From Vulcanisaeta sp. AZ3 (lineage in GTDB: Archaea > Thermoproteota > Thermoprotei > Thermoproteales > Thermocladiaceae), in NCBI GenBank assembly GCA_000960865.2, contig JZWU02000002.1:1-32000 (forward strand): a stretch of DNA of 32,000 bases, read 5' to 3'. This document shows, in pieces, positions 1-28,582 of the stretch. A model generated the notes under the pieces. It searched no databases and was not told the DNA's origin. It saw only the letters and a program-made list of their open reading frames with translations. The first letter of the stretch is position 1, and each line of letters opens with the position of its first letter. A program made the position numbers and the translations under genes.

Positions 1-98
1 AATGAACATTTAGCAATCGAGGTTACAAAATGCCTATCCTTACTCTGCAACCGATTAAGCAAATAATTAGCCAGGTCCATTATCTCCTCTAAACCCAT
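1..98 (-). CDS. hypothetical protein, N-terminal fragment (gene continues off the left edge)
   Basis: The ATG at 98-96 shares one base with the TAA of the upstream ORF (TAATG). The frame stays open to position 1 (MGLEEIMDLANYLLNRLQSKDRHFVTSIAKCS...). No motif recognised. Confidence 0.3.
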   Translation of the reverse strand, partial: MGLEEIMDLANYLLNRLQSKDRHFVTSIAKCS

Positions 99-928
99 TA
101 CCAAATCACCCTCACTCCAGCCTTTGTTAATTCCCGCTTCATATAATCCAAGTAATTCTCAAGCAATTCCTTCGCGGGTAAAATAGTCTCGTGCGAGCTC
201 CTAGACCTCATTACGCATATATCACTAAACCTACAGACTTTACATGAGGTCGTCTTAGTTACCAAGGCACCAATATCACCACCCTCCGCAGCCTTAACCC
301 AAATCTTAAAGGCATATATGACTGGATAACCAACCTCCGGAATCACCTCAATGGGTACTATATTACGTAATATACCATCATTAAGTACCATGTACATAAC
401 ATAGGTATTTTTCTTACCAGCAGCTGAGTAAAAACCAGCCTGTATGAGATCATGCAATAACCTTGTCTTTGTAACCCTACTAATCACAGTCTTAAATTCC
501 AAGTAATAATCACCACAATCCAAGTCCGGCTTCCCCCTCAATGTCCATGAACCATGCACATACATAACCTCAACCCCATCAATACACTTACCACTAAGCC
601 TATTCTTCACCTCCGTGACAGCCAAACTATGTATCATCTTACCTAATAGATGCATTACTATATCACCCCAATCAATACTTGGGGTCCTACCCATTAAATA
701 ATAACTCGGTATTAAGGAGCACTGCGTGAATAAGCCCACTGGCACATTGCCAGGACTTATCTTAACCATGGAGTCCCTTATCTCATTAAAAATAACCCTA
801 CTCAACCCAACCTCCCTATTAACTGCATCACCAACCTCTTTCATTATGCTCGTTATTGAATAACCCTCCCTTACCAATCTCGTTACTTCCCCAACAACAC
901 TCTTTAAGGTATCAGTTAATTGACTCAT
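98..928 (-). CDS. Cas4-like PD-(D/E)xK nuclease with 4Fe-4S cysteines (RecB/DUF83-type), stand-alone
   Basis: Motifs occur in the canonical order: N-terminal Cys (FTQCSLIPSYY), GKMIH, GKPDLD...YYLEFK (D...ExK), LIQAGFY (QxxxY), and C-terminal CKVCRFSDIC (C-x2-C-x5-C). The ORF track starts at GTG 949. I prefer the ATG at 928 because it lies about 28 nt downstream of a TTTAAATAT box. Confidence 0.6.
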   Translation of the reverse strand: MSQLTDTLKSVVGEVTRLVREGYSITSIMKEVGDAVNREVGLSRVIFNEIRDSMVKISPGNVPVGLFTQCSLIPSYYLMGRTPSIDWGDIVMHLLGKMIHSLAVTEVKNRLSGKCIDGVEVMYVHGSWTLRGKPDLDCGDYYLEFKTVISRVTKTRLLHDLIQAGFYSAAGKKNTYVMYMVLNDGILRNIVPIEVIPEVGYPVIYAFKIWVKAAEGGDIGALVTKTTSCKVCRFSDICVMRSRSSHETILPAKELLENYLDYMKRELTKAGVRVIW

Positions 929-951
929 AACGATAACATCGAAAGACACCC

Positions 952-960
952 TTTAAATAT
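952..960 (-). promoter_or_regulatory. TATA-like box for the Cas4-like gene
   Basis: TTTAAATAT in the 46-bp gap between genes, centred about 28 nt upstream of ATG 928. The spacing fits a leaderless crenarchaeal promoter. Confidence 0.35.
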
Positions 961-995
961 CTGTCTAGCTCTAGACTCAATAATATCAACGCCCA

Positions 996-3002
996 TTAAG
1001 TAAGAAAGTATGATCTCTTCATAAAATCCTCATACTGACTAAGCAACTCCTTACTCAATGACGGACGAACCCTACCCAAGGCATACTCAAAATCCTCCCT
1101 CTTAATCATAATCCTCTCATCACCACCCAAAACCCTATCTAAAGCTCTCATCTTAGCCTCCCTAACCAAAGCCGCAATATCCGCACCACAATAACCCTCA
1201 GTCCTATCAGCAATCCAATCAATAACCTCATCCTCAACCACGGCATTCCTAATATGAACCCTTAAAATCTCACGCCTAGCCTCACGATTAGGCGGCGGTA
1301 TATACACAACCTTATCAAACCTACCAGGCCTAAGAAGAGCAGGATCCACAGACCAAGGCCTATTAGTAGCAGCAATAACAATCACATTACCCAACCCCCT
1401 CAACCCATCCATCTCTGTCAATAACTGAGAAATCGCATTAGCCCAAACAATACCCATCGGCGAATCCCTCGGCGGCGCCACGGAATCAATCTCATCAATA
1501 AATACTATCGCCGGAGCATTCTCACGAGCCCTATTAAACGCATCCTTAATAATAGACGCTGCTCTCTCAGGACCCACCCTAGCCAACTCAGCACCACTCA
1601 ACTCCAGGAAATTCGCCTTTAGCATATTCGCCGTAGCCTTAGCCAACAAAGTCTTACCCACACCAGGAGGACCGAAAAAGAGTATCCCGTGAATAGGCTC
1701 AATACCCAACCTCTCCAGAACCTCCTTTTTCTGCATAGACGCAACAACGTACTTATTAATCAAAGCCTTAGCCTCCTCTAAGTCACCAACATCATCCCAA
1801 GTAACCTCCGGAATCCCAACCTGGGGCTTCTCATAAGTCCTAAGCCTATCATACTGAAGCCTAAAGGCTTCATACCTCTCGAGCATGTCATACGTAAGAC
1901 TCGGCTTATACTTACTAATAATTCTCTCAAGATCCTCCTGAGTTATTAACCTCCTCTCCTTAGCAGCCTCAAGAACTGCAGTCCTAACAACATTCATTAT
2001 ATCAGCACCCGTAAACCTATCCGTCAACTTAGCCAACTTAGCATAATCAATAACACCCTGAACAGGCTTCCCCCTAAGCAATGACTCAAATATCCTAGCC
2101 CTAACCTCCTCACTCGGTGGCGGTACGTAAATCACCTTATCAAACCTACCAGGCCTAAGAAGAGCAGGATCAAGTAGGTCTGGTTGATTAGTAGTACCTA
2201 TTATTAATATACTCTCATTACTCTTACTAACACCATCCATTTCACTAAGCAATATATTCAACAGCCTCGGCGTCACATCATCACTCACATACCTAGTCCT
2301 AGCCTTACCAATAGCATCAACCTCATCAATTATAACCACAGACGGCGCATACTCCCTAGCCACCCTAAACAACTCAGAAAGCCTATTCTCACTCTCACCA
2401 TAATACTTACTTAACAATTCACCTAAATTCATTATTATAGTCGTCCAACCCAACCTACCCGCCATCGCCCTAGCAAGCATTGACTTACCCACACCAGGCG
2501 GACCAAAGAATAACACCCCATGTATTGGCATCAACCCATACTTCTGCGATATATTAGCATTCCTAAGCGGCATTAACACTGAAGACTCAATCTCATTCTT
2601 AATATCATCAATCCCAACAGCACTATCCCAATCCCCAGCCATCACCTTTAACTCATCCTTATTCGATATCAATTGATAACCCCGCTCAAGCATTACCATA
2701 GATTTCTTCCTCTCCTCCTCAAACCTAATCTCCACAAGCCTGAAATGCATTATAATCGGGAGTATTGTTAAACTAAGCAGAAGGGCTGGGATCAAACCCA
2801 TAACCAAAGTATTAACATTAATACCCTGATAAAGACTGAAATATGGATTTACATAATAAAGAAGACCAGTTAACAAGGCATAAGCGCCCATAGTACCAAC
2901 AGCCGGTGCAAAAAACCTAACTACATAATTACCATGAGCCCTCAACCTACTCGAAACCACATAAGCGCCATAAGCCGCAAGCGCCATAAGCAGCGGCAAC
3001 AC
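996..3002 (-). CDS. membrane-anchored tandem AAA+ ATPase (CDC48/VCP-like D1-D2 without a CDC48 N-domain)
   Basis: There are two AAA modules with Walker A GPPGVGKS / GPPGVGKT and Walker B IIDEVD / FIDEID. Each is followed by TN..D(L/V)DPALLRPGRFDK(V)(I/V)Y(V/I)PPP. The first ~95 aa are hydrophobic helices (LLTGLLYYV..., LVMGLIPALLLSLTILPIIM). The start is uncertain: GTG 3002 overlaps the upstream ORF by 61 nt, and ATG 2891 is the alternative. Confidence 0.85.
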   Translation of the reverse strand: MLPLLMALAAYGAYVVSSRLRAHGNYVVRFFAPAVGTMGAYALLTGLLYYVNPYFSLYQGINVNTLVMGLIPALLLSLTILPIIMHFRLVEIRFEEERKKSMVMLERGYQLISNKDELKVMAGDWDSAVGIDDIKNEIESSVLMPLRNANISQKYGLMPIHGVLFFGPPGVGKSMLARAMAGRLGWTTIIMNLGELLSKYYGESENRLSELFRVAREYAPSVVIIDEVDAIGKARTRYVSDDVTPRLLNILLSEMDGVSKSNESILIIGTTNQPDLLDPALLRPGRFDKVIYVPPPSEEVRARIFESLLRGKPVQGVIDYAKLAKLTDRFTGADIMNVVRTAVLEAAKERRLITQEDLERIISKYKPSLTYDMLERYEAFRLQYDRLRTYEKPQVGIPEVTWDDVGDLEEAKALINKYVVASMQKKEVLERLGIEPIHGILFFGPPGVGKTLLAKATANMLKANFLELSGAELARVGPERAASIIKDAFNRARENAPAIVFIDEIDSVAPPRDSPMGIVWANAISQLLTEMDGLRGLGNVIVIAATNRPWSVDPALLRPGRFDKVVYIPPPNREARREILRVHIRNAVVEDEVIDWIADRTEGYCGADIAALVREAKMRALDRVLGGDERIMIKREDFEYALGRVRPSLSKELLSQYEDFMKRSYFLT

Positions 3003-3646
3003 ATAAGTACTAGTCCAAGTAGCAAAACCCTAACAGCCGCCTGCCCAAGCCCTGAGAAACCCAGGCTTAAACCACTCAAGGCATTACCCACACTGGCAGC
3101 CGTAAGCGTACTCAGCGGCTGTACTTGACCAGTCACATGGCCAAACCAAGGCATCACTGAGGCATCAGCATTGAGGAGTATTAGAGTCGGAATGTAAAGC
3201 ACTAGGAATGTTATTAATGACTTCAACGGCATCACCCTCCTAGTAACGCCAACCGTAAGACTTGGCGACGTCAGAATTACAGGTATGGACAACACATAGA
3301 ATGCATTAGGCACTATAGACAACTCCCAAGCAAGCATACCAACACCCACACCCAACCAATCAAAAGCCTCAATAAGCACAAGAAGAATCAAAATAAGCAA
3401 CAAAGCACCCAAAGCCGCATACCTATAAACATAGAGCAAAGCCGGTATTAAAATTACAACCATCACCGCAAAGGCAAGCTTCGTACGCCCTGAATAAGCC
3501 AAGGCCGTAGCGACAATAACTATTAACACAGCAACAGGCAATGGATAAAAAGGAAAATCCCACACCAAAGCCATCGCAGAGACTATTAAGTAAAGTACAG
3601 CCGTAAATAACCTCGACATTTCACGCAACGCCCTAGTACTAACCAC
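2942..3646 (-). CDS. polytopic integral membrane protein, unknown family
   Basis: 234-aa ORF with about 6 hydrophobic segments, lying directly upstream of and co-oriented with the AAA+ gene. The last ~20 aa (MCCRCLWRLRLMALMWFRVG) overlap the AAA+ frame and look non-native, so the true 3' end is uncertain. Confidence 0.55.
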   Translation of the reverse strand: MVSTRALREMSRLFTAVLYLIVSAMALVWDFPFYPLPVAVLIVIVATALAYSGRTKLAFAVMVVILIPALLYVYRYAALGALLLILILLVLIEAFDWLGVGVGMLAWELSIVPNAFYVLSIPVILTSPSLTVGVTRRVMPLKSLITFLVLYIPTLILLNADASVMPWFGHVTGQVQPLSTLTAASVGNALSGLSLGFSGLGQAAVRVLLLGLVLMCCRCLWRLRLMALMWFRVG

Positions 3647-3744
3647 ATCACTACCATTATGAGGACCCTTAATAAAATATCAATTAAAATCGCCAATTAC
3701 AACAAAACGAAAACCTCACCTTGAAGAACAAGGAAGAAACTAAC

Positions 3745-4050
3745 CTACTGCGCCTTCTTCTCAGCCCCCTTCTCCTCCGGAACGTTTAGGGTAACCTTCA
3801 CAGTACCATCACTATACTTCGTAACCTTAACCTCAACCCTCCTCGGCGGCTTCTCAATACTCCTCGACCAAACATAATTATTAACATCATTCTCAACCCT
3901 AACCTTACTAGGCTCAACCCTCATATGCCTAGCCACAAAACTCCTAATCAACCTAATGGCATAGGGAGACCTCTTAGTCCTAGAAACCTCCCTAGTCCTC
4001 CTAAGGTTAATCACATAAACTCTCTCAACCTCAACCTTAGCCTCACTCAT
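3745..4050 (-). CDS. rpl31e: 50S ribosomal protein L31e
   Basis: VYVINLRR...[17 protein letters not shown]...[27 protein letters not shown] is the typical L31e core. I prefer ATG 4050 (MSEAKVE) over the track start at 4071. Confidence 0.9.
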
Positions 4051-4083
4051 CAAGGCACAGGAAATGAGCAAGATTAATAAGCA

Positions 4084-4911
4084 TTATTTTTCCCTAAAAC
4101 CACTAAGCAACTCCAGAACCCCAGCCCTAACATAATCCTCATTACCGAACCCCATCACAGTCAATAATTCATAGAGAGACTTAACAGCTGAGGAAACAAC
4201 CAATGGAGTCCTCGTATCCCCAGCAGTCTTAACCGCATAATGCACATCCTTAGCAGCCAAGGCCAACGTGAATGACGGCGATGACCTAGGACTCACCATC
4301 CTATCCAAGTACTTCTCAGCAATCTCCCTAAACACAGTTCTCCTCAGAAGGTCCTTGAGGACACCATCATCAATACCGTAGGTCTTACCAAGCACAACAT
4401 ATTCGCCCAATAAAGCCATTGAACCTATAAGAAATGCATTATAGGCTAACTTCAATGCCATCGCAGACTCAGCAGTTGGCAATCTAATCACAGCACCCAA
4501 CTTATCAAAAACACCCTTAACCCCCTCATAAGTAGCCTCAGAACCCCCAACTAAATACACAGCCGTACCCTTCTCCACATCACCAGGTCCACCAACAACC
4601 GGCGCAGCCAAAAATCCAACACCCGCATCTCTAAGCCTAGCACTAAATGAAGCAACCGCAGCAACACTATATGTACCCGACAAGGCCACAACCTCACCAC
4701 CAACACCCCTAACCATACCTAACGCATTATCATCAGAGACAAAGACAAACACCAAACCCCTAGCTTGAGAAATATCATCAAGAGGCTTAGCCGGTAAGTC
4801 CTTAAGCTTCTCCTTCGTCCTATTCCACGCATACACAGTGAAGCCTTGACTAGCCAACCTCCTAACTAACGCACTACCCATCCTACCCGTACCAACCACA
4901 GTAACATCCAT
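4084..4911 (-). CDS. NAD(P)-dependent oxidoreductase, 3-hydroxyisobutyrate / 6-phosphogluconate dehydrogenase family
   Basis: N-terminal Rossmann motif VTVVGTGRMGSALVRRLASQGFTVYAWNRT. Length and the C-terminal helical domain pattern (ALKLAYN...) fit the family. Confidence 0.75.
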   Translation of the reverse strand: MDVTVVGTGRMGSALVRRLASQGFTVYAWNRTKEKLKDLPAKPLDDISQARGLVFVFVSDDNALGMVRGVGGEVVALSGTYSVAAVASFSARLRDAGVGFLAAPVVGGPGDVEKGTAVYLVGGSEATYEGVKGVFDKLGAVIRLPTAESAMALKLAYNAFLIGSMALLGEYVVLGKTYGIDDGVLKDLLRRTVFREIAEKYLDRMVSPRSSPSFTLALAAKDVHYAVKTAGDTRTPLVVSSAVKSLYELLTVMGFGNEDYVRAGVLELLSGFREK

Positions 4912-4957
4912 ACGATTAGTGAATTCTAGAGCCGAATTAAAAAGTATTATGAATGAA

Positions 4958-5506
4958 TTAACTATTTGATTCAGACCCTTGATTTAAGGATACATTAATC
5001 TTCATTAATGAGAATATATCATCCTCCCTAATCACACTAACACCCGTCGTGCTCGGAAAAACCTCCACCTGTATAACCTTATCAGGATTCTCAAGCCTAA
5101 CCTTATTACTAATCCTAGAGGCTATTGAATCTATAATATCCATCCTATCCAAATCAACACCCCTCTTCCTAACCTCAACCTTATACGTCTCACCAGCACC
5201 CAAGTACCTACCCGCCAAATCAACAGCAGCCTTCGCAATAGCATCCAAGTCCGTCCTAACAGTCCTCATTATAGGAACAACCTTAAGCACAAAACGAGGC
5301 ACATAACGACCACTAACCACTAACTCCTTAACTCTCCTCGTGAATTCCACAGGATCCCCATCAACATAACCAGTTATCAAACCATCAAACCCCGTAAATG
5401 ACGTCTGAGCAATCCTCATACCAATCATATCACCTATATACCTAATCTCATCAGCAGCCCTACCCTCCAACCTCCTCCCTGTGGATATCACAAGGTTAAA
5501 ATCCAT
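4958..5506 (-). CDS. THUMP domain-containing protein
   Basis: About 180 aa. The N-terminus NLVISTGRRLEGRAADEI and the C-terminal half YKVEVRKRG...DIIDSIASRI...ENPDKVIQVEVF match the stand-alone archaeal THUMP pattern. Confidence 0.6.
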   Translation of the reverse strand: MDFNLVISTGRRLEGRAADEIRYIGDMIGMRIAQTSFTGFDGLITGYVDGDPVEFTRRVKELVVSGRYVPRFVLKVVPIMRTVRTDLDAIAKAAVDLAGRYLGAGETYKVEVRKRGVDLDRMDIIDSIASRISNKVRLENPDKVIQVEVFPSTTGVSVIREDDIFSLMKINVSLNQGSESNS

Positions 5507-5609
5507 AACAAAAACTCAACACCCCAACCTAAACACTAATTTATAAACCACACCTATTTCGAGATTATTAACACCCTTAATCCTACAGCGAATCAACAAA
5601 AGGTAATGC

Positions 5610-5618
5610 TTTTAAGAT
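5610..5618 (+). promoter_or_regulatory. TATA-like box upstream of the acidic micro-ORF
   Basis: TTTTAAGAT centred about 31 nt upstream of ATG 5645, in an otherwise unassigned 289-bp intergenic region. Confidence 0.3.
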
Positions 5619-5644
5619 AAGCAATTAAGACTCAACGATCAAGC

Positions 5645-5752
5645 ATGAACAGACTACTTATGGAGGAAGAGGAATGGGGTGAAGGTGAAGGAGAAGGAGA
5701 AGAGGAAGAGGAATGGGAAGAATTCGAAGAGGAATGGGAGGAAGAATTATAA
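5645..5752 (+). CDS. candidate micro-protein (35 aa), extremely acidic: MNRLLMEEEEWGEGEGEGEEEEEWEEFEEEWEEEL
   Basis: ATG...TAA ORF below the ORF-track size cutoff, read by hand. It is a GAA/GAG/GGT-rich patch on a strand that is otherwise G-poor, with a TATA-like box at the right distance. It lies on the opposite strand to both neighbours. Confidence 0.3.
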   Translation: MNRLLMEEEEWGEGEGEGEEEEEWEEFEEEWEEEL

Positions 5753-5795
5753 TCATTATTAAACACAACCCATTAAAATAGAAAACCCACCCACT

Positions 5796-7001
5796 TCACA
5801 CCTCAGCATAACTCAATTGACTAAGCACATAAGCCCTAACATCACTATCACTCGGCATAGACTCAACAGCCTTACCATCCTCCACAAACCTCCTCAAAAG
5901 AGGCACAGGCCTAGAATTATCCGGACAAGGTGCAGGCTCCGAATCCCAGGGAACAACCTGATCATTAAGCGTATCCCCACACCTATAAACCTGCTTAAAG
6001 CCCGGCAACTTACCACGCTTTGTAATTGGAACCCAACGACTACTCTTCTCATCATAAGCCTCCACAATATCCATACTAATATCAACACTCGGCGGGAAGG
6101 CTATTGAAGTGCCAACGCCGAGCATATCCACAATATCCCTAAGCCTAACAACCTCATCCTCATCCACACCACCACTAACAACAATCTTAACATTCCTATA
6201 CCCAGCCAAATCAAGAGTCCACCTAACCTCACGCACAATAGCCTCCATACTACCACGCCTACTACTCGGCGTATCAAGCCTAACACCAAACAACCTATCA
6301 CCAAGCAACTTAGCAGCTAACATAGACTCTTCACGCTCGTCAAAGAAAGTATCAGCCAAAACAATCCTAGGAACACCACTCGGCATCACCTTATCAAACC
6401 ACACCCAAGCCATCGTATGATCCCCAACAGCATGCCTAAACACAATCATTAACGCATGAGGCATCGTACCACTCGGCTCAATACCAAGCAACTTAGCCCC
6501 AATCACACCCGCAACACCATCACAACCACCTATATACGCCGCCCTATCAACCATAGGCTGAACTGCTGGATGAACAACCCTAGCGCCAAAGAATAGACAG
6601 ACCTTATCACCAGCAAGCCTCTTTATCCTAGCAGCCTTAGTAGCCACTGAACTATAATGCCTCAATATACCTAGAAATGTAGTTTCATAAACAGCAAAAT
6701 CAACATAATTCCCCTCAACCACCATAACAGGCTCACCAGCCTTAAACAAAGTCCCCTCAGGCATCGCATATATAGTCACAGGCAACTCCTTAGCCGTCAC
6801 CAAATTAACAACCTCCCTCAAACCAGCAAAAACAGCCCACTTATAATCCCTGGGTAAATTAACAACATGAAACTCAGCCCTAACCCTAACCCTATCAAGA
6901 CCCGCAGCCTTAAGAACATCAACAGTCCTATTGAAATAAATATCCGTAGCCTCACCATTAAGAATCTCCTCATCCCTAGCAACATAAAACAACCTATCCA
7001 T
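5796..7001 (-). CDS. pncB: nicotinate phosphoribosyltransferase (archaeal type)
   Basis: [14 protein letters not shown]-terminus, [10 protein letters not shown] motif, [10 protein letters not shown] and VSGG(V/L)DE are typical of the NAPRTase family. I prefer ATG 7001 ([11 protein letters not shown]...); the Cys/Trp-rich track extension to 7112 looks non-coding. Confidence 0.8.
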
Positions 7002-21380: not shown

Positions 21381-22545
21381 GGGGCAGTTTTATGCTGGTT
21401 TGCTTCAGGCCTTGTTGGTGATTGTGCCTCTTACTATTGCTATTAGGGCTTCTAATAATATGTTATTAACGACTATACCTCTCTTGGCTAGGTATGATTT
21501 TCACTTCACGAATGCTCTTATAGGTGTAATTTCGGCTTTAACGTCGTTTGTGACATTCATAAGTAGTGGTATAATTAATGCGAGGCTTAGTAGTGAATTG
21601 AGGAGGGTTGCATTTATAGTTTCGTCCGTGGTCTACGCAGGTGTGTTTCCGCTTTTTGCGTTTTCTAGTGCGTTGACGATTTGGTTGTTGTCGGCCGTGG
21701 CTGGTTTTGTGCTTGGGTTTTTGATGCCTAATGTGATAACGTCGGCTAGTTTATTGCCGAGTAGGACTGATAGGGAGAGGCTTTTGAATATTTATACTTT
21801 GTCCTTGAGTACGGCGTTGGTTGTGGGGCCTGCGATAGAGTCCTTGATACTTAAGTACTTTAGTCTTAGGGAGTCCTTCATTTTCTTCACCATATTCCCA
21901 ATAGTAAGTGTAGTAACGGCGTTTATGTTGAAGTTTCCAGAGGAGCGGGGTAATCGTAATGGCATTGATTTTGGTGTGGTTGTTCATAATCCTGGCTTTA
22001 TAACTGCTGTTCTTAATATAGCGACGTATAACATAGTCTTCTCCTTCTTAATGGCGTTTGGTGGTATTTATGCTAGGGAGGCCTTTGGTATGGATTATTC
22101 TGAGATTGAGATTTTATTCTCTGTATTCTTTGTGGCCTCCTTCCTCGGTAGGTTGTATTTGTCGATTAGGCCTGCGGTGAGGCTTTGGCCTTATATGGCG
22201 TTGGCTGTTATGATGACTGTTACGGGCGTACTCGTGATAGCCCTCACTAATAATCCGTTGGTATATGCTGCGGCTTTGCTTGTGTTGGGTGTTCCGCATG
22301 GTACTACGTACCCGTTGTCCGTGGTCTCCATATCTAGGTCTTTTAAGCCTGAGGAGAGGAATGCTGCGAATAGTATATTCTTCTCCTTCATGATGCTTAT
22401 AGGTATAGTGACGCCTACGGTGACTGGTTATTTGGCTGATTTAATTGGTATTAGGAATACGTTTATTGTCTTGGCGCCGCCGATCATTCTAATCCTACTC
22501 CTAATGCGTAGGTATGTGGTTGCAGTCGATAGGCCGAGGGATTAA
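21358..22545 (+). CDS. MFS transporter
   Basis: About 12 hydrophobic segments in two halves separated by a charged loop (KFPEERGNRNGID). Possible starts are TTG 21346, ATG 21358 and ATG 21373, and all overlap the upstream gene. Confidence 0.7.
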   Translation: MASPGMSRGQFYAGLLQALLVIVPLTIAIRASNNMLLTTIPLLARYDFHFTNALIGVISALTSFVTFISSGIINARLSSELRRVAFIVSSVVYAGVFPLFAFSSALTIWLLSAVAGFVLGFLMPNVITSASLLPSRTDRERLLNIYTLSLSTALVVGPAIESLILKYFSLRESFIFFTIFPIVSVVTAFMLKFPEERGNRNGIDFGVVVHNPGFITAVLNIATYNIVFSFLMAFGGIYAREAFGMDYSEIEILFSVFFVASFLGRLYLSIRPAVRLWPYMALAVMMTVTGVLVIALTNNPLVYAAALLVLGVPHGTTYPLSVVSISRSFKPEERNAANSIFFSFMMLIGIVTPTVTGYLADLIGIRNTFIVLAPPIILILLLMRRYVVAVDRPRD

Positions 22546-22578
22546 TAATTATCTTTACATCAGTGATTCTTTGTGTCA

Positions 22579-23271
22579 ATGCTTGGTTATGTGGTTAGGA
22601 GGCCTGATGTTGTTGGTGTGTTTGTGAGGAGGTTGAATAGGTTTGTGGGTGTTGCTGTTATTAATGGTGAGGAGGTTATGGTTCATATTCATGACCCGGG
22701 TAGGTTGCAGGAATTATTGAGGCCTGGTGTTAGGATTTATGCCTATGAGAAGAGTGGTGGTAAGACTAGGTATTACTTAGTGGCTGTGGATTTAGGTGAT
22801 GAACTTGTGCTTGTGAATTCGGCGATACATAATGACATCGCGTCCTGGCTTATTAGTAATGGTTTTGTCTTGAGGGATTATCGAGTGGTTAGGAGGGAGC
22901 CTGTGTTTGGTTCGGGTAGGTTTGATTTATTGTTAAGGTCGCCAATGGGTATGGATGCCTTTGTTGAGGTTAAGGGTGTTACATTGGAGGTGAATGGTAT
23001 TGCCGAGTTCCCTGACGCTCCTACGCAACGTGGTGCCCGTCACATGATGGAGTTGGCGAGGGCTGTGGGGCTTGGTTATGAGGCTTATGTGTTATTTCTC
23101 GTGCTTAGGTCGAGGGCTTTTGTGTTTAGGCCTAATGAGGCGCTTGATTCTAGGTTTGCTGAGGCGTTTAGGTTTGCGATGAGCCATGGTGTGAATGCAG
23201 TGGCTTATAAGTTAGTCTTGGGTCGGGATTGGGTGTTGAGGCCTGTGGGGCCCTTGAGGGTTGAGTTTTAG
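22579..23271 (+). CDS. sfsA: SfsA-family nuclease (sugar fermentation stimulation protein homologue)
   Basis: [76 protein letters not shown]. The start is ATG 22579 or GTG 22573. Confidence 0.85.
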
Positions 23272-24609
23272 TTATTTAGCTTCGGGGGTGAGTATGTAGG
23301 TGTTTACGTTGGTTCTTGGAGATAATTCGTTGGAGATTGGTGTTAGCATTAATCTCTTAACCTCATTCATATCTCTTGTTTGTGCTAAGACCCATGATAA
23401 CTTAACAAATGCTACCTCTGGTATCATGTCTTCGGCTGGTATTACGCCTAGCGTTAGTAATTCTACGCCTCTTCTGTATACGTTTAGGTTTACTCTTCCG
23501 AATATTGTTTGACTCGTTATAACTATGGGTATGCCATTCTCGATGGCTCTCCTTATTGGATCGAGTAGGGGTTCTCTAACGTGGCCGAACCCTGTGCCTT
23601 CAATGACGATTCCGTGGTATCCCTTATCAATTAGGTGGTGAAGTATTTCTGGGTCCATGCCTGGGTAGAATTTGATTAGTGCGACTTTATCGTCGAATTT
23701 ATTCATGAGTATTGTATCCTCAGCCTTGGACTTGACTTGGTAATTGTTTGTATTGAGTTTGATCTCGAGTTTGTTAATGTCTACGTAGGCCACGGGCTCA
23801 TCATTAATACTTATGAACGCGTCTCTCCTTGAGGTGTGCATTTTCCTAACCCTGGTACCCCTATGCACTGCTATTAAGCCATCATTGGTTGAGGCATGCA
23901 TAATCACGAAGGAGCCTGCAAAGGGGGCGCGGGCGCCCACAAGCACAGCTGCAAGCATATTCTCAAAGGCATCGCTGGATGGCCTATCACTACTCCTCTG
24001 GGAGCCGACCAGTGCGATGGGGCCTGCTGGATTTCTAATGGCAAATGAGAGAGCCGCTGCTGTGTAGTGCATTGTGTCTGTTCCGTGGAGTATAACCACG
24101 CCGGACACGCCTTCCATGAAGGCCTTGTATGTGGCTTCTGCGATTTGGCTCCATCCCTGTGGTGTCATGTCCTCGCTGAAAATTGCCATTAGGTTTAGTA
24201 GCTCCACGTCCGCGATGCTCCTAATCTCTGGGTACATGGCGTATAGGTCCTCGAGGCTGAAGCTTGGGTAGACGGCGCCTGTCCTATAATCGACCTTAGA
24301 CATTATTGTGCCGCCGGTTGCCACTAGTCTAACCCTGGGTAATCCCGTGCTTTCAGCCTTTATGAAATGGCCAATGGGTATTGATGTAACGCCCTTGGAT
24401 TCAATGTGTCTCATTATTTCAACTCTATCGATATTGCTTACGTGAATACCTACGTTATAGCCATTATCGAGCTTGAGAACCATTATGTTAGGATCACCAA
24501 CACCTGGTTTTGGCAGGACAATGCCTCTTAGTGTTGTGCCGTCCTTTAGGTGAATATTAATGTCGTCAAACTCCCTAATCCCGTGCTTGTCAAGGAATTC
24601 ATTAAGCAC
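23272..24609 (-). CDS. gatD: Glu-tRNA(Gln) amidotransferase subunit D
   Basis: An N-terminal GatD-specific domain is followed by an asparaginase fold: ATGGTIMSKVDYRTGAV, ILHGTDTMHYTAAALSF, GSQRSSDRPSSDA, IVIEGTGFGHV. No gatE is adjacent. Confidence 0.85.
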   Translation of the reverse strand: MLNEFLDKHGIREFDDINIHLKDGTTLRGIVLPKPGVGDPNIMVLKLDNGYNVGIHVSNIDRVEIMRHIESKGVTSIPIGHFIKAESTGLPRVRLVATGGTIMSKVDYRTGAVYPSFSLEDLYAMYPEIRSIADVELLNLMAIFSEDMTPQGWSQIAEATYKAFMEGVSGVVILHGTDTMHYTAAALSFAIRNPAGPIALVGSQRSSDRPSSDAFENMLAAVLVGARAPFAGSFVIMHASTNDGLIAVHRGTRVRKMHTSRRDAFISINDEPVAYVDINKLEIKLNTNNYQVKSKAEDTILMNKFDDKVALIKFYPGMDPEILHHLIDKGYHGIVIEGTGFGHVREPLLDPIRRAIENGIPIVITSQTIFGRVNLNVYRRGVELLTLGVIPAEDMIPEVAFVKLSWVLAQTRDMNEVKRLMLTPISNELSPRTNVNTYILTPEAK

Positions 24610-24641
24610 GGTATTCCTATCATGGCAATTGGTTAATAATT

Positions 24642-25007
24642 TTACTCATTTGGTGCTAGGTCTAGTAGCATGTTTATGACCTTGTTGTCGCGCTCTGTTG
24701 AGTGTCTGGTGATTATTATGTACTTGAGTTTGGATAGGGCGTAATCGCTGAGTAGGCCGAAGCCGTTACGTGAGATGCATAGGACTTTTTTACCACTGGC
24801 TAGGGCGTAATCAACCTCTGTCTGATCGCCCACATTTCTCAGTATTATTACATTTACGCCATCTTGTTCGACCACGAGTTCATCATCCTTAACAAGTAGT
24901 AGTGCGCATTCGCCAGGTTTTAGGTCTATTAATACTTTGTCTAGGTCGTTGTAATCGTTTATTCTGACGATCCTAACCATACCGAGACTTATGTACGGAC
25001 TAAGCAT
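24642..25007 (-). CDS. hypothetical protein (112-121 aa)
   Basis: ORF with globular composition directly upstream of gatD (32-nt gap). ATG 24980 (MVRIVRINDY...) is an alternative start. No family recognised. Confidence 0.45.
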   Translation of the reverse strand: MLSPYISLGMVRIVRINDYNDLDKVLIDLKPGECALLLVKDDELVVEQDGVNVIILRNVGDQTEVDYALASGKKVLCISRNGFGLLSDYALSKLKYIIITRHSTERDNKVINMLLDLAPNE

Positions 25008-25080
25008 TTAGTACCCATACTCAAAATAACTAGTAAGCCTAATAACCCACTGATGGCCTTAAAAGGAAACATGATGAGTA

Positions 25081-25536
25081 ATGACCTCAACACTTTGTAA
25101 AGTGCCTGTGAGGTATGAGTATGGTGAGCACACGGCGGATATTTCCGTGATAGCCTATGGATGTACTCTAGAGGAGGCATTTGTGAATGCAGCTTTGGGT
25201 GTTGCGAACTTGACGTATTATACAGATAGGGTTGAGCCTAGGGAGTATGTGGAGGTTAGGGTTAGTGGTGATGATTTAGAGCAACTTCTTTTTAATTGGA
25301 TAGATGAGTATATATTTTTGTTTGACGGTAGGAAATTTGCCTATGGGGATTATTTTAAGGATATTGCGTTAGAAGGGAGTGGGCCTTATAGTATTAGGGC
25401 TTTGGTTGGTGGTGAGCATTTCGATATTAATAAGCATGGTTATAGGGGCTTGATTGTTAAGGCTATGACTTACAATATGATGGAGATAAGGAAAATTAAT
25501 GATTATTGGAGGCTCGTATTTGTGGTGGATATATAA
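25081..25536 (+). CDS. archease
   Basis: [30 protein letters not shown]..., [22 protein letters not shown], and [12 protein letters not shown]...WRLVFVVDI match the family signature end to end. Confidence 0.9.
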
Positions 25537-25545
25537 TAAGGTTAA

Positions 25546-25560
25546 TTTTAAATTTTTATA
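25546..25560 (+). promoter_or_regulatory. A/T-rich TATA region for the small-membrane-protein operon
   Basis: TTTTAAATTTTTATA lies 21-35 nt upstream of ATG 25581, just after the archease stop codon. Confidence 0.35.
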
Positions 25561-25580
25561 CGGTGATTATTACTTCAAAT

Positions 25581-25808
25581 ATGAAGCGAGAGGTTAGTAT
25601 TGCTTTGATTATTATTGGTGTTGCTCTTCTTCTATTTGCATCTGTACTTGCATATTATGAGTTAATCCAGGGAGTGACTATACCACAGCCGCCAAGTCTT
25701 GAGAGTGTTTTGTATGTGCTTGCTGTGGTTACGTATAAGGTTGCGTTTATATCCGTAATAGCTTGGTCTGGTGCGTTATTGATTACTAGGGGGTTGCAGA
25801 ACTTATGA
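25581..25808 (+). CDS. small membrane protein (75 aa, 2 TM)
   Basis: MKREVSIALIIIGVALLLFASVLAYY... plus a second helix VAFISVIAWSGALLI. I prefer ATG 25581 over the track start at 25506, which lies inside archease. Confidence 0.5.
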   Translation: MKREVSIALIIIGVALLLFASVLAYYELIQGVTIPQPPSLESVLYVLAVVTYKVAFISVIAWSGALLITRGLQNL

Positions 25809-26146
25809 GGGTTGTCATATTCCTGGCCTTATTGGCGTTGATTATAACTATCGTTGTCTTGGTGATGTCTGTATCTATGATTAATAGTTTCGGGAGTTAT
25901 GTTAGGGCTGGTGTTTACTCGATGGGTAATAGGTATTATTTATCGCTTAATGTGACTAATCCATTACCACTGCCAATAATATTGGCAATAGTCCAGGGGA
26001 ATGAGTCTATGCAGGTAGTGATACAGCCGTATGGGCATGGTAATGTGGATTTTCCGCTGGTGAGTTTAGAAATTCCTTTAAGGGTGATGATTGAGGTGCC
26101 TGGTGTCTTTAATGCCACGTATGTGGTGACTCTCAATGAGGGTTAG
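25805..26146 (+). CDS. membrane-anchored protein (113 aa, N-terminal TM plus beta-rich ectodomain with NxT/S sequons)
   Basis: ATGA overlap with the upstream ORF. N-terminal anchor VVIFLALLALIITIVVLVMSV; sequons NVT, NES and NAT. Confidence 0.5.
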   Translation: MRVVIFLALLALIITIVVLVMSVSMINSFGSYVRAGVYSMGNRYYLSLNVTNPLPLPIILAIVQGNESMQVVIQPYGHGNVDFPLVSLEIPLRVMIEVPGVFNATYVVTLNEG

Positions 26147-26537
26147 GGATAGGTTAATTAATGGTGCATTTAATGCGGTTACTGACCTTCTATTCCTAAT
26201 ACTAATGCTCATACTATATGCCTTACTAAGCTCATTCCTAATGCACACAACACCAAACATACTAGCGCTAATTCAAGAGTACATTGTGTTAATATTGGCT
26301 TTTGCGATCATAGCCTTCCTTAGGGGTGCTTTGGCGGGGCACGTGTTGGTTTACCCAGTGTTACTTGGGGAGTTTATGTTGGTGACTGCGATTTTTGTCT
26401 CTGTGCCAAGCACAATGATTGTTCATGGGGTTTTGGTGAATGTACAGCCAATAATTTATTTTGTATGGGCTATTGAGGCTGCGTGGATTGTGTACTCAGT
26501 AATCAATCAACTTAATGAAATGATTAAAGATCCCTAA
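26136..26537 (+). CDS. small membrane protein (133 aa, about 4 TM)
   Basis: Overlaps the upstream ORF by 11 nt and has four hydrophobic segments. Confidence 0.5.
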   Translation: MRVRDRLINGAFNAVTDLLFLILMLILYALLSSFLMHTTPNILALIQEYIVLILAFAIIAFLRGALAGHVLVYPVLLGEFMLVTAIFVSVPSTMIVHGVLVNVQPIIYFVWAIEAAWIVYSVINQLNEMIKDP

Positions 26538-26538
26538 C

Positions 26539-27764
26539 TCAACGTAGTGCCTCCTCAATCCTTAACGCCAAATCCTTAATCAACTTACTCATTAGGAATT
26601 GTGAAGCCCTTTCCCTGGCATTTCTACTCATTGCGTCTCTCTCCTCTGGGTGGTCGAGGAGTCTCTCCACAGCTTTGGCGGCGCCCTCAATATCGTCAAG
26701 TCCATTGACGTGTATTCCATCAATGCCATCCCTAATAACCCATTTCTGTCCGTAAATGGCTGATGTTATTACTGGAACGCCGCCGTACATGAACTCTAGT
26801 TGTGTTAGGCCTAGGGCTTCCATTTTACTCATTATTATGTTGACGTAGGATTCCTTAATCAATTTCTTCTTATCCTCAACACTTAACTCGTTTGTTAATG
26901 TGACGTTGCTTAACCCACGGGATTCCCTAACAACCTCATTCCATTGATCGCCTGGCTTGCCTGCAATTACGAAGTGAACATCGCGTCTATGCCTAAGTAT
27001 TTTAGCAACTTGAACAACAGCTAGTGGGTTTTTCTTTCTTCCACTGTACCTAGGTATGCAATGATTTTGTCATCATCTGGTATTCTATACTTAATTCTAA
27101 AGTCGCTCGAGTCAATTGCTCCCAGGTCGGAAACCTCATCATCGTCGATGCCTCCTGGAAATACGTATATCTGCTCAGGCCTAGCGCCCATCCTAACCAT
27201 CTCCTCACCCTCAATGGGTGTAACGCATAGGATTAAGTTGGCGGCCTTGAATATCTCGGGGAATGCCATGTGGTTCCAAGCAAGTCTATACGTCCTCTCC
27301 ACAACATCATACCTAGTTGGGTCTGGTGGCTGGTAATGACTCATATGTGCATAGAATATACTGCCGGACTCTAGACTAAAGGTTGTTAGCATTCTCCTCC
27401 ACATTACGTACTTAGCAGTGTCCTCGGGGCCGTTCCATAGTGTTGAGTGTGTTATTAAGGCATTGACGTTAAAGTTCTCGTTAATCCTCCTAAGTATGTC
27501 CACGAAATTCTTAAACATTATTCTCCTGGGAGGCCATTTGGCCATGTAACTATCAACCCTAATGGTGGGTAGGTTTATGGTTCTATCCTTTTCTTGAAAT
27601 ATGTAGCCCTCGAGTGATGTCTCTACAAGTCTTCTCTTAATGGCTTCATTACCATCATGATAAATGCTCGTTATTAAGTAAGCCTCATACCCAAGCCTAA
27701 GAAACCACTTAACCATCCTCTGGGCCACTAGTTCCTGCCCCTTGGAGTTACTTGTTTGATACAT
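26539..27764 (-). pseudogene. GT1/GT4-family glycosyltransferase interrupted by a single-base frameshift
   Basis: The N-terminal ORF (27021..27839, likely ATG 27764) ends ...IIAYLGTVEERKTH*. The C-terminal frame is open from about 27060 and reads ...KKNPLAVVQVAKILRHRRDVHFVIAGKPGDQ...EALGLTQLEFMYGGVPVITS...DGIDGIHV. Adding one A to the A5 run (T5 at 27029-27033 on +) gives the continuous sequence ...GTVEERKNPLAVV..., which is the normal GT4 junction. Confidence 0.7.
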
Positions 27765-27783
27765 TATTACTCCAACAATCGGC

Positions 27784-28497
27784 TTAACCACCACTCCCAC
27801 CTTCCTTACCCTTTTGTTGCCGACCCCACTCCTGCTCAAGGAATCTCCTTAGGGGTTCTCTGAGGGGTACTGCGAGGACGAGGCCAATGGCTACGCCAAG
27901 CCCTATGGCGACTGCCCAGGCGAGTCCTTGGGCGAATATGTAGAGTATTTCTACGTTAACCTTCATTACGCTTAGGGCTATGGTTATCACCATGTAGTAA
28001 AGAATGAATCTAAAGGCATCGCCAACAAAGTTCAGTAGTGTTTGGGTGTATTGATCATTAGTTGGGTAACTGCGTTTGAAGTAGTCGCTTATCCAATCAA
28101 CCATTATTAAACCAATAATTAAAATTATAATACCAGACACGAGGTATGGTAGGTATGAGAGAACACTTCTTGATGTGTCGTAGAGAAATGATAGATTTGG
28201 ACTTATGTATGATAGTTCGAGGAGTGCGTAGAAAATGGCAGCTATGTAAATAATCCACTTAACAAAGAGGCCTAGGAAGTCACCTGCTGTATAACCGCTC
28301 CTCAGGAGTGCGCGGCCTACGGAGGTTTTCCTAAAGAAGGCATCTAGGCCTGTGGTGTAGGAGATCTTCTTTATGAGTATTTCCACTAGTCTGCCGATTA
28401 CATAACCGACAATGATTATTATGACCGCGGTTAATACAGTGTAGAATGTGCCTTGCGGGATGAAGCCTAATATTCCTGTTGTTTGATTTGTGCTCAT
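27784..28497 (-). CDS. integral membrane protein with repeated TM-helix modules (MscS-N-terminal-like 'conserved TM helix' type)
   Basis: Four or five TM segments alternate with amphipathic loops, and the tail is basic and Gly-rich. The family call is weak. Confidence 0.45.
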   Translation of the reverse strand: MSTNQTTGILGFIPQGTFYTVLTAVIIIIVGYVIGRLVEILIKKISYTTGLDAFFRKTSVGRALLRSGYTAGDFLGLFVKWIIYIAAIFYALLELSYISPNLSFLYDTSRSVLSYLPYLVSGIIILIIGLIMVDWISDYFKRSYPTNDQYTQTLLNFVGDAFRFILYYMVITIALSVMKVNVEILYIFAQGLAWAVAIGLGVAIGLVLAVPLREPLRRFLEQEWGRQQKGKEGGSGG

Positions 28498-28582
28498 TTA
28501 TTAATTAATTATTCATTGTCCTTTTAAGGCTTCCATACGTATTAACAATATTACCGCTATTGAGGCTAATTTTAAGGGAAAA

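Follow-up and report, generated by a model that had tools for sequence, protein, structure and literature searches.

The strand asymmetry around 12.9 kb in the DNA analysed here is real and lineage-specific, and it constitutes a mutational footprint that extends from a centre outwards. At silent sites G and T make up about 95-99% of one strand, and this asymmetry is confined to local islands. To our knowledge, no comparable silent-site strand asymmetry is known from any cellular chromosome. The analysed stretch (the window) comprises 32,000 nucleotides, + strand positions 1-32,000 of contig JZWU02000002.1, and belongs to the metagenome-assembled genome (MAG) of the hot-spring archaeon Vulcanisaeta sp. 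AZ3 (GCA_000960865.2; 55 contigs, 1.51 Mb). As the cause we favour, with a probability of about 0.42, DNA synthesis whose polarity is fixed from the centre outwards, the centre being a putative bidirectional initiation zone.

Strand asymmetry in the window

Asymmetry was quantified as K4, the + strand keto skew at fourfold-degenerate sites, (G+T-A-C)/N. An earlier note on this DNA had counted bases in eight 60-nt samples and claimed an asymmetry independent of gene orientation. On recount, six of these counts were exact and the other two were off by no more than two bases, and the asymmetry itself was found to be stronger than claimed and to be present at fourfold sites as well.

In the left arm (1-12750) the + strand is A/C-rich, and therefore the - strand, which runs 5' to 3' away from the centre, is G/T-rich. 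Bulk composition at 1-12722 is 37.6% A, 30.0% C, 12.9% G and 19.5% T, with a GC skew of -0.40, an AT skew of +0.32 and a keto skew K of -0.35 (z=-40 vs parity). The right arm (13250-25600) is G/T-rich on the + strand in genes of both orientations, with 19.9% A, 16.4% C, 27.2% G and 36.5% T at 13278-25600, a GC skew of +0.25, an AT skew of -0.30 and K=+0.27 (z=+30 vs parity). The extremes of GC skew at 1-kb resolution are -0.56 on the left and +0.48 on the right. Intergenic DNA has the sign of the neighbouring genes, although weaker (K=-0.27 left, +0.15 right).

Left of 12.6 kb, K4 is between -0.67 and -0.97 in 11 of 11 Pfam-verified genes, and the sign is common to + strand genes (MBL, SAM-HAT and ThiS) and - strand genes. 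Along the arm K4 goes from -0.97 near the centre to about -0.7 at 1-7 kb and -0.32 at 98-949; past the start of the window (L242) values near -0.3 continue through a further 1.26 kb or more. Genes of both orientations at 13.3-25.5 kb have K4 of +0.43 to +0.92, the values being mostly +0.85 to +0.92 between 13.3 and 18 kb and +0.5 to +0.8 from there to 25.5 kb. The fourfold sites of AT-III (A7, C1, G71, T111) and CPBP (A82, C32, G2, T0) give an idea of the amplitude. When the right arm was fitted with a logistic curve, its half-decay was 10.1 kb, at a slope length of 3.9 kb.

The right arm fades out at 25600-28500, where K4 goes from +0.5 to about 0, and is followed by an unskewed flank (28500-32000) that served as a control, with CoxM/S and CoxL-type genes at K4 +0.04 and -0.10. 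The right boundary of the extent given in the earlier note (1-28500) is not sharp: K4 fades gradually to about 0 by 28.5 kb; on either side of the centre K4 is back to 0 within ~15 kb. The skew had also been held responsible for an abundance of long spurious antisense ORFs, on the argument that a T-poor strand has few stop codons. The island has 34 such ORFs of at least 60 aa and 9 of at least 100 aa, but only about half of them read on the A/C-rich strand.

The switch zone and its neighbourhood

The centre of this butterfly-shaped pattern is a switch zone at 12750-13250, located within a pilin-like gene (12723-13277, + strand; weak Pilin_N match, E=4e-4) whose first ~170 nt are A/C-rich and whose remainder is mixed. 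The change of sign from - to + in both G-C and T-A skew is completed within 0.5 kb, fourfold sites included, and the cumulative keto skew reaches its minimum at 13175. The polarity of the switch is that of a replication origin. Archaeal origins have an AT-rich intergenic region with repeated ORB elements and usually adjoin orc1/cdc6. This anatomy was not found at the switch, where the nearest intergenic stretch is 118 bp. Each Vulcanisaeta genome has one Orc1/Cdc6 gene, and synteny places orc1 ~15 kb to the left of the switch, at the fading end of the left arm.

Relatives have two extra genes at the switch locus, and strain-level variants lie beside the switch, namely an additional segment of 39 letters at 12563-12570 and the skipping of 12844-12922. 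An intron-bearing tRNA gene (10822-10912, - strand), 2 kb from the centre, is a synteny breakpoint with respect to V. distributa, and the contigs of four out of four public runs branch there. In the right arm, the isochorismatase gene (14744-15431, + strand) is less skewed (K4 +0.43) and, at 87%, has the highest identity to relatives. It adjoins a recombination junction, with 21 transitions between two strains within 15112-15431, and the JGI strain carries a 2,317-bp unskewed cassette inserted at 15429. Across the island all 41 differences between the two strains are transitions; taken unpolarised, they show no clear direction (21 vs 15 in the right arm). The island has a SNP density of 0.17%, vs 0.075% outside (P=0.05), on too few sites to carry weight.

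Integrity of the junction

That the pattern is an artefact is scarcely credible, be it a chimeric join at 12.9 kb, a binning mixture, sequencing or assembly damage, or introgression from a wholly skewed donor. The fragmentation of the MAG into 55 contigs, and the branching of public-run contigs at the tRNA gene and within the pilin N-terminus, could be taken in its favour. However, the switch is crossed by an independent 78-kb JGI contig that is 99.6-99.9% identical and extends over 1.9-36.5 kb, the runs of two studies gave near-identical sequence, and the CPBP-pilin-Kae1 order across the switch is kept in three relatives (G008, G004 and OSP_8). The synteny and the independent contig together rule out the chimera at 12.9 kb that the earlier note had named as a possible refutation. 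In addition, the skew of fourfold sites far exceeds that of codon positions 1 and 2, and proteins have kept their identity, indicating that the changes passed through selection; purifying selection persists on the proteins of the island. Neither mixtures nor introgression would predict gradients together with a uniform - to + polarity. An inversion of the 1-12.9 kb block was considered and rejected, since G008 and G004 share the order of genes that leads outward from orc1.

Skew islands across the genome and in relatives

Genome-wide analysis showed at least 10 butterfly islands (about a dozen) of 10-50 kb, all of which switch from - to +, in a genome that is mostly unskewed (|K4|<0.2). The arms have half-decays of ~10-25 kb, and the C1 arm extends over ~45 kb. 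Sharp K4 steps (|dK4|>0.8) go up in 14 cases vs down in 3 (P=0.006). The skew otherwise declines gradually, and where it does switch downwards, which is rare, the tails of neighbouring islands meet. The autocorrelation of per-gene K4 is 0.61 in this genome vs 0.14 in V. distributa. The earlier view of a skew that follows chromosome arms, or replichores, is therefore not sustained: the window contains a local island of ~15 kb on either side of its centre, one of at least 10, and the rest is unskewed.

The 188 strongly skewed genes are divided between 101 co-oriented with the outward direction and 87 opposed to it. Centres lie at synteny breaks in 7 of 14 cases vs a background of 11% (P=4e-4) and at tRNA genes in 3 of 12 (P=0.005), and they also coincide with unskewed cassettes of surface/glycosylation-type genes and with dead-end contig ends. 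The arms of C10, C17, C27, C29 and C1 start abruptly at full strength beside such cassettes. Among 12 centres no shared motif was detected except for tRNA T-arm words, and pilin paralogues are not general to centres.

At the same syntenic genes, no such skew was found in V. distributa or in the closest lineage outside, and the weak steps in skew that V. distributa has do not coincide with the centres of this genome. The earlier note had suggested that the effect could be very strong at hyperthermophilic temperatures, but hyperthermophily does not bring it about in general: complete genomes of congeners and the closest outside lineage have no such skew at the syntenic genes. A scan of metagenome contigs with Kae1 detected no close relative, the best full-length match being 52%. 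Runs composed only of A and C were tried as a survey marker and dropped, since they do not separate this genome from V. distributa.

Substitutions, proteins and repair genes

The depletion of C and A that had been seen in the sequence corresponds to lineage-specific C>T and A>G changes on the G/T-enriched strand. At codon position 3 of this strand, C>T amounts to 0.65 and A>G to 0.51 per ancestral base, with reverse changes of 0.03 and 0.02. At positions 1 and 2, favoured changes occur at about 2x and reverse changes at about 0.5x the level of unskewed genes, and total substitutions are raised by 35-47%, as polarised with two relatives and no outgroup.

The two favoured changes share one strand and follow a spatial gradient, as would be the case for deamination of single-stranded DNA, in which C deaminates more than 100x faster than in double-stranded DNA (PMC3269012). 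Plain hydrolytic deamination favours C, and C>T would then be expected clearly above A>G (PMC3269012). This was not observed, the excess over baseline at position 1 being 0.10 for C>T vs 0.09 for A>G; differential repair could mask a difference. The same pair of changes is known from NucS/MMR-deficient bacteria, where on the leading strand A>G outnumbers T>C, and C>T outnumbers G>A, about 3-fold; it results from uncorrected G.T replication mispairs, and transitions represent 97% of substitutions (PMC11109965). The lesion could be deamination of an exposed template or, equally, uncorrected G.T mispairs in the strand synthesised outwards.

According to the orientation of their genes, proteins have moved towards V/G/R/F or towards I/T/K/N, and the shift in amino-acid usage suggested by the earlier note was borne out across the genome by comparison with V. 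distributa orthologues. Proteins of the most skewed genes are 71% identical to those of V. distributa, vs 75.6% for unskewed ones; selection has filtered the changes, and the total rate is at most modestly raised. On the same values, hypermutation (kataegis, or episodes of deaminase activity or damage) was rejected as the main cause. Protein constraint could hide part of a raised mutation load.

Of the repair genes whose presence had been proposed as a check, two UDG genes and EndoV were found, in the same numbers as in relatives. NucS, ThermoDBP-RP and two PolB genes are also present, and the census of these five families revealed no difference from relatives. A Y-family polymerase was not found in any of five genomes.

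Possible causes of the asymmetry

On both sides of the centre, C>T and A>G have accumulated almost solely on the strand that runs 5' to 3' away from it, and silent sites of that strand are now about 95% G/T. Under centre-out DNA synthesis, putative bidirectional initiation at the centre implies that, within ~10-15 kb, one strand would nearly always be the lagging-strand template, that is, the leading-strand sequence, and elsewhere in the genome fork direction would vary and the asymmetry would cancel. The orientation-independent fourfold skew and the switch of sign within 0.5 kb are consistent with an initiation zone. So is the N-domain-type profile of the genome, with sharp upward jumps and gradual declines at many sites per chromosome, as predicted where initiation zones set up gradients of fork polarity (PMC3320577, PMC2764438).

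Other observations are difficult to accommodate with an initiation zone. A decay over 10-25 kb is unlike that of any replichore, and fork direction would have to be unfixed over most of the genome. The single Orc1/Cdc6 gene is ~15 kb off, at the fade-out of the left arm and not at the centre, the switch is inside a coding gene, and the centres share no motif but tRNA T-arms. Skewed genes are not co-oriented outwards (101 vs 87), no relative has the pattern, and no difference was found in the repair and polymerase genes surveyed. Moreover, the location of centres at synteny breaks, tRNA genes, cassettes and dead-end contigs indicates recombination at least as much.

A strong rival, although a less probable one, is that the asymmetry is linked to recombination and that homologous recombination keeps exchanging the content of the loci at the centres. 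Resection of a linear donor in the 5' to 3' direction would leave 3' tails that are the enriched strands (- on the left, + on the right), and the bias would come from damage to the tails, from error-prone outward repair synthesis, or from asymmetric correction of G.T vs A.C heteroduplexes. Asymmetric correction would act as a fixation bias similar to biased gene conversion, with a butterfly that decays with tract length; the ~2x and ~0.5x levels of favoured and disfavoured changes fit such a bias, and the decay lengths are on the kilobase scale. Unskewed cassettes and tRNA genes at centres, the enrichment of synteny breaks, and full-strength arms directly beside cassettes in the five cases named above also argue for recombination, and island contigs end in dead ends as population-variable loci would. 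Cassette exchange is seen in the window itself, where a 99.9%-identical strain has the 2.3-kb unskewed insertion at 15429 and 21 transitions in the adjacent 320 bp. However, 95% G/T over 10-45 kb would need very frequent events or a strong conversion bias, the ~45-kb arm of C1 is long for conversion tracts, and the same variable loci (Kae1-pilin-TM-ADH-CPBP) are unskewed in relatives. A recurrent double-strand break in the chromosome with 5' to 3' resection was rejected, because by derivation the polarity that it predicts is the opposite one.

The remaining explanations are less probable. The model of the earlier note, a replicon-wide leading/lagging skew driven by heat deamination of C and A, under which the 12.9 kb switch would be the chromosomal origin, accounts for the polarity and for both substitution types and agrees with the >100x faster deamination of C in single-stranded DNA (PMC3269012), yet it is quite improbable: the skew is confined to islands and |K4| stays below 0.2 over most of the genome, the centres number at least 10, hyperthermophilic congeners are unskewed, the A>G excess is about that of C>T although C deamination is the commoner reaction, and the genome has both UDG and EndoV. 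Divergent transcription that reads through from the centre, exposing the non-template strand, would produce the observed polarity, which matches transcription-associated asymmetry, and some centres have tRNA and pilin-type genes for which high expression is likely. It is nonetheless very unlikely as the cause, given that would-be antisense genes are equally skewed (Kae1 +0.85, AT-III +0.92), that 87 of the 188 strongly skewed genes point inward and that the arms extend for 10-45 kb. Mobile elements often integrate at tRNA genes, and an element at the centre, since decayed or excised, could have driven repeated outward replication from an in-situ or captured origin, or strand displacement, and so have skewed the flanks. 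The tRNA genes, foreign-looking cassettes and enriched synteny breaks at centres, as well as the restriction of the feature to one lineage, suggest such an element, which we regard as improbable: the first residues of the centre ORFs, from which alone these were judged, did not point to an integrase, Rep or initiator, and the centre in this window is a pilin-like gene only.

Comparison with known systems

The islands resemble the GC/TA skew at bacterial oriC in that the strand running 5' to 3' away from the switch is G/T-rich, independently of orientation at silent sites and through C>T and A>G changes. They differ in being local (half-decay 10-25 kb) instead of replichore-wide, in occurring at a dozen sites, in their far greater strength (K4 up to 0.97), in the lack of skew in congeners and in not being tied to an initiator gene. 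Their amplitude is also much larger than that of mammalian skew N-domains. With these domains the islands share sharp upward jumps, gradual declines and many centres (PMC2764438, PMC3320577), but they span kilobases rather than megabases and belong to an archaeon with a single Orc1/Cdc6. In NucS/MMR-deficient bacteria, leading-strand A>G and C>T likewise exceed their complements and nearly all changes are transitions, although the bias is ~3-fold and genome-wide (PMC11109965), whereas in the islands it is local and ~30-fold at silent sites, in a genome where NucS is present. The H/L asymmetry of vertebrate mtDNA has a similar joint depletion of C and A, a gradient and an effect on proteins (PMC3269012). 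Vertebrate mtDNA replicates by strand displacement, of which the island gives no sign; unlike mtDNA, the island is in a cellular chromosome, has two mirror-image arms per centre and shows an A>G excess about equal to that of C>T.

Replacement-type flexible genomic islands have variable cassettes of surface/glycosylation-type genes and flanks marked by recombination. Such cassettes are found at the centres here, and the marks of recombination in the flanks of flexible islands also decay with distance. We know of no description of strand-asymmetric composition in those flanks.

Significance

We suggest tentatively that the butterflies may be either a sequence-encoded map of a dozen or more outward-synthesis sites in an archaeon with a single Orc1/Cdc6, or the product of a new strand-asymmetric biased gene conversion around variable-cassette and tRNA loci. 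If the map of outward synthesis is true, replication at these loci would start independently of Orc or depend on recombination, with fork-polarity gradients like those of eukaryotes. If the centres are recombination hot spots, a new strand-asymmetric process of conversion or damage would be at work. In both cases neighbouring genes are under opposite mutational pressures and amino-acid usage is visibly altered, and the skewed genes mislead gene callers, codon-usage measures, compositional binning and phylogenies. If the centres are initiation zones, the sequence of this uncultured Thermoproteales archaeon would reveal directly how its replication is programmed, with many sites and one initiator gene, and either reading, if true, would mean a new process that shapes archaeal genomes and proteins.

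Strand asymmetry across the window

The + strand contains A 37.6, C 30.0, G 12.9 and T 19.5% between positions 1 and 12722, and A 19.9, C 16.4, G 27.2 and T 36.5% between 13278 and 25600. The keto skew K, (G+T-A-C)/N, is thus -0.35 on the left and +0.27 on the right, departing from parity by 40 and 30 standard errors, respectively, and GC skew per 1 kb reaches extremes of -0.56 and +0.48. A recount of the eight samples counted by hand in the earlier note found six exact and two within two bases.

Genes were mapped by Pfam matches and homologues in relatives, and skew was scored at fourfold-degenerate third positions on the + strand (K4). All 11 verified genes left of 12.6 kb gave K4 values of -0.67 to -0.97, a range common to + strand genes (MBL, SAM-HAT and ThiS) and - strand genes, while genes of both orientations at 13.3-25.5 kb ranged from +0.43 to +0.92. 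The extreme cases were the CPBP gene (fourfold sites A82 C32 G2 T0) and the class-III aminotransferase gene (A7 C1 G71 T111). The asymmetry is therefore independent of gene orientation, as the earlier note had proposed: fourfold skew is strong, neither near zero nor following gene orientation, and has one sign per arm.

The sign switches between 12.75 and 13.25 kb, within a pilin-like gene (12723-13277). The left arm keeps K4 at about -0.7 to -0.97 as far as 1 kb, falls to -0.32 at 98-949, and in a Logan contig persists 1.26 kb past the window start (K4 -0.37 and -0.27). This skewed region, or island, is roughly symmetric, with about 15 kb on each side of the centre. It contains many antisense ORFs, as anticipated (34 of at least 60 aa, 9 of at least 100 aa), but only about half of them lie on the A/C-rich strand, which makes the scarcity of T-initial stop codons only a partial reason for them.

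Conserved gene order and independent assemblies

The contig belongs to a metagenome-assembled genome (MAG) of 1.51 Mb in 55 contigs, and the window is the contig start. A chimeric join at 12.9 kb had been raised as an alternative. The gene order from UbiA, CPBP, pilin and Kae1 through hyp24642 is kept across the switch in V. distributa and in the Vulcanisaeta genome G004, and also in a contig of Vulcanisaeta sp. OSP_8, the nearest lineage outside the species, whose aminotransferase is 83% identical to that of AZ3. An independent JGI metagenome assembly (sample 3300049624) contains a 78-kb contig, 99.6-99.9% identical to the window over 1.9-36.5 kb, which crosses both the tRNA gene (10.8 kb) and the switch (12.9 kb) unbroken, and public runs from two studies contain near-identical sequence. 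The skew at fourfold sites far exceeds that at the first two codon positions, and proteins of the most skewed genes are 71% identical to their V. distributa counterparts, vs 75.6% for unskewed genes, indicating that the changes were filtered by purifying selection in a living lineage. Conserved synteny, the spanning contig and the action of selection rule out, for practical purposes, a chimeric join, a damage artefact or a binning mixture.

Gene content at the centre and neighbouring loci

Relatives carry two extra genes next to the pilin-like gene, encoding a Zn-ADH-like protein and a small membrane protein, which are missing from AZ3. The missing pair maps to the exact island centre, between CPBP and pilin (12604-12723 in the window, 2272964-2274534 in V. 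distributa and 10939-12516 in the OSP_8 locus L240), and G004 has a similar-sized gap between the CPBP and pilin genes. Contigs of the public metagenome runs vary here. Run X1 has a joint from 12570 to 12563 with 39 extra A/C-rich letters, at the N-terminus of the CPBP protease gene, beside the switch; one contig of run X2 skips 77 nt inside the pilin-like gene (12844-12922), and seven X2 contigs overlap position 12727. A (TCA)n repeat at 13129-13176, which encodes a serine run in the pilin-like protein, is a place where public-run contigs are cut.

An intron-bearing tRNA gene of 91 nt lies on the - strand at 10822-10912; ARAGORN assigns it to Thr(GGT), but to Trp(CCA) when introns are allowed. 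Contigs from all four public runs branch at this gene, with a depth of about 60 vs about 20 nearby, and it marks a synteny break relative to V. distributa. On the right, a GT4-type glycosyltransferase on the - strand is split into a C-terminal (26539-26862, Glycos_transf_1) and an N-terminal part (27021-27839, Glyco_transf_4), 158 bp apart, and may be a frameshifted or decaying gene; gene calls in the JGI strain differ here (59 aa and 196 aa).

Local extent and restriction to one lineage

A 2-kb keto-skew map of all AZ3 contigs had a median |K| of 0.064, most of the genome being unskewed, with islands of up to 0.51. The skew is thus local, and not the property of a chromosome arm that the earlier note had taken it to be. 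The whole V. distributa chromosome was compared through 1,454 reciprocal-best orthologue pairs, with K4 scored per gene. The 95th and 99th percentiles of |K4| were 0.68 and 0.91 in AZ3 vs 0.37 and 0.53 in V. distributa, the autocorrelation of K4 between neighbouring genes was 0.61 vs 0.14, and the five-gene mean exceeded 0.3 in 15% vs 0.1% of windows (maximum 0.30 in V. distributa). Comparable skew was absent from the orthologous regions of three complete congeners, from eleven 4-kb Kae1 loci and from the OSP_8 contig, so the skewed state originated within this species' lineage. Since congeners lack such skew at orthologous regions, high temperature, suggested earlier as something that could make the effect very strong, is by itself an insufficient explanation.

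The MAG, at about 90% marker completeness, is smaller than the complete congeners (2.3-2.4 Mb); either the genome is reduced or its flexible part, possibly including island centres, was lost in assembly or binning.

Substitutions and protein composition

Ancestral states were taken from sites where V. distributa and G004 agree, and changes on the AZ3 side were counted. Third positions of the left arm changed on the + strand, per ancestral base, by G>A 0.65 and T>C 0.53 vs C>T 0.04 and A>G 0.03; in the right arm the favoured and disfavoured changes are swapped (C>T 0.52 and A>G 0.42 vs 0.08 and 0.05). Among 322 gene trios, position 1 was symmetric in unskewed genes (C>T 0.11, G>A 0.10, A>G 0.09, T>C 0.09), while genes with |K4|>0.75 showed, on the enriched strand, C>T 0.21 and A>G 0.18 vs G>A 0.05 and T>C 0.05, a "2x" rise of favoured and "0.5x" fall of disfavoured changes that is approximate, as with two relatives and no outgroup the changes on the relatives' stem count reversed. 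It is safe to say that the drivers are C>T and A>G transitions on the strand running 5' to 3' outward from the centre, that the A>G excess about equals the C>T excess, and that the islands are no zones of massive hypermutation, total change per site being only modestly raised from unskewed to skewed genes (0.153 to 0.206 at position 1, 0.091 to 0.134 at position 2).

Differences between strains are in line with a transition-dominated regime: between the window (7767-26804) and the JGI strain (locus L241) all 41 differences were transitions, with no transversions and no indels besides a cassette, and in run X2 transitions outnumbered transversions about 10:1.

The skew alters proteins, as the earlier note had read from the genes. 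Those with a G/T-rich sense strand gain V (+3.3 points), G (+1.6), R (+1.1) and F (+0.9) and lose I (-2.5), K (-1.3), N (-1.3) and T (-1.1); genes with an A/C-rich sense strand shift in the opposite direction, and in unskewed genes no difference exceeds 0.6 points.

Islands in the rest of the genome

Minus-to-plus islands were also found on contigs C6 (~42 kb), C3 (~45.5 kb), C7 (20.7 kb), C10 (7.6-11.9 kb), C12 (1.9 and 26.5 kb) and C17 (2-7 kb). Half-islands sit at contig ends or cassette borders. The clearest is on C1, where K4 deepens from -0.2 (53 kb) to -0.97 (99 kb) before the skew ends suddenly, with K4 about 0; others of this form are on C18, C19, C22, C15, C27 and C29. Steps between adjacent genes were mostly upward (14 up vs 3 down for |dK4|>0.8, P=0.006; 35 vs 16 for |dK4|>0.6), and the few that go down, as on C18, sit where tails of two neighbouring islands meet. 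Logistic fits gave half-decay distances of 10.1 kb for the window's right arm, 9.7 for C29, 10.8 for C18, 12 for C17 and 25 kb for C1.

DNA synthesis and recombination as possible sources of the skew

The enriched strand corresponds to the leading-strand sequence, i.e. the lagging-strand template, of a bidirectional origin, and sharp upward jumps with gradual declines are the shape described for mammalian genomes at initiation zones that have fork-polarity gradients (PMC2764438, PMC3320577). From this polarity and shape we infer, as the explanation ranked first, that DNA synthesis around island centres would have a fixed centre-out polarity. The lesion could be the classical one, deamination of C and A in the exposed template; C deaminates >100 times faster when the DNA is single-stranded, and more often than A does (PMC3269012). 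It could also be uncorrected G.T replication mispairs: on the leading strand of NucS/MMR-deficient bacteria these give nearly equal excesses of A>G and C>T, as seen here, with A>G exceeding T>C 3-fold, C>T exceeding G>A 2.6-fold and 97% of changes being transitions (PMC11109965). A check for uracil and hypoxanthine repair genes, suggested earlier, found UDG (x2) and EndoV in AZ3, which also has NucS, ThermoDBP-RP and two PolB genes, as do its relatives; searches of five genomes turned up no Y-family polymerase. No difference among the repair and replication genes compared with relatives accounts for this lineage's skew. The endonuclease V gene (C17:9508-10077) itself lies within a strongly skewed arm.

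Of the 188 strongly skewed genes, 87 point against the outward direction and are equally skewed, which makes divergent read-through transcription from the centre unlikely. A recurrent chromosomal double-strand break with 5' to 3' resection would, by our own derivation, give the opposite polarity. Recombination-linked asymmetry at variable loci carries about two-thirds of the weight of centre-out synthesis. Resection at both ends of a linear donor duplex would expose exactly the enriched strands, or strand-asymmetric handling of G.T vs A.C heteroduplex mismatches would act as a fixation bias, which is also compatible with favoured changes going up and disfavoured ones down. Synteny breaks relative to V. 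distributa occur at 7 of 14 upward steps, against a background of 11% of gene junctions (P=4e-4), and 3 of 12 centres contain a tRNA gene (0.34 expected, P=0.005); the island in the window has one 2 kb from its centre. Contig ends at islands lack 115-nt overlaps of the kind that join 24 other end pairs, which fits population-level variability. Several centres contain cassettes with K4 about 0, such as the four genes at C10:7771-11354, placed exactly between the minus and plus arms beside tRNA-Asp, with hydrophobic, signal-like N-termini and only 33-37% identity to their best V. distributa matches, where the flanking genes are neighbours. Judged only from first residues, centre ORFs on C17 and at the end of C1 are glycosyltransferase-like, and those on C3 and C27 resemble secreted proteins. 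Between the isochorismatase and aminotransferase genes, at position 15429, the JGI strain has a 2,317-bp cassette (L243 13423-15860) with K4 about 0, made up of an MFS transporter gene and two small ORFs; of the 41 strain differences, 21, all transitions, cluster within 320 bp on its left side. No gene of the right arm is less skewed (+0.43) or closer to relatives (87% identity) than the isochorismatase gene next to this cassette. With these cassettes and clustered differences, recombination at these loci is directly visible. Against it as the source of the skew, these loci are present but unskewed in relatives, and the arm on C1 reaches 45 kb.

Comparison with known origins and skews

A single Orc1/Cdc6 gene was found in all four Vulcanisaeta genomes searched (AZ3, V. 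distributa, G004 and G011), the AZ3 copy at C14:33175-34128. By synteny with V. distributa and G004, genes beyond the window's left arm lead to this gene, at the cut end of C14, where K4 is -0.44, dropping to about 0 further on. C14 and the window's contig are thus probably adjacent, which would place the initiator gene at the island's left edge, away from the centre. Upstream of orc1 in V. distributa (1-1800 and 2370000-2374137) there is an intergenic spacer of about 85 bp with no obvious repeated elements. With one orc1 and so short a spacer lacking obvious repeats, the canonical layout of an origin next to orc1 is not evident in the genus.

We found no report of local extreme skew in archaea in the literature searched. 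A 2026 survey calls archaeal skews generally weak, with no mention of Thermoproteales (PMC12999951), and for GC skew or replication origins in Vulcanisaeta only genome notes and one chromosome-conformation preprint were found. The island acts like a replication-type strand asymmetry, but fails the classical description of origin skew in extent, origin anatomy and conservation. The underlying process may itself be new, in the form of Orc-independent initiation at multiple sites or of a biased conversion that is strand-asymmetric.
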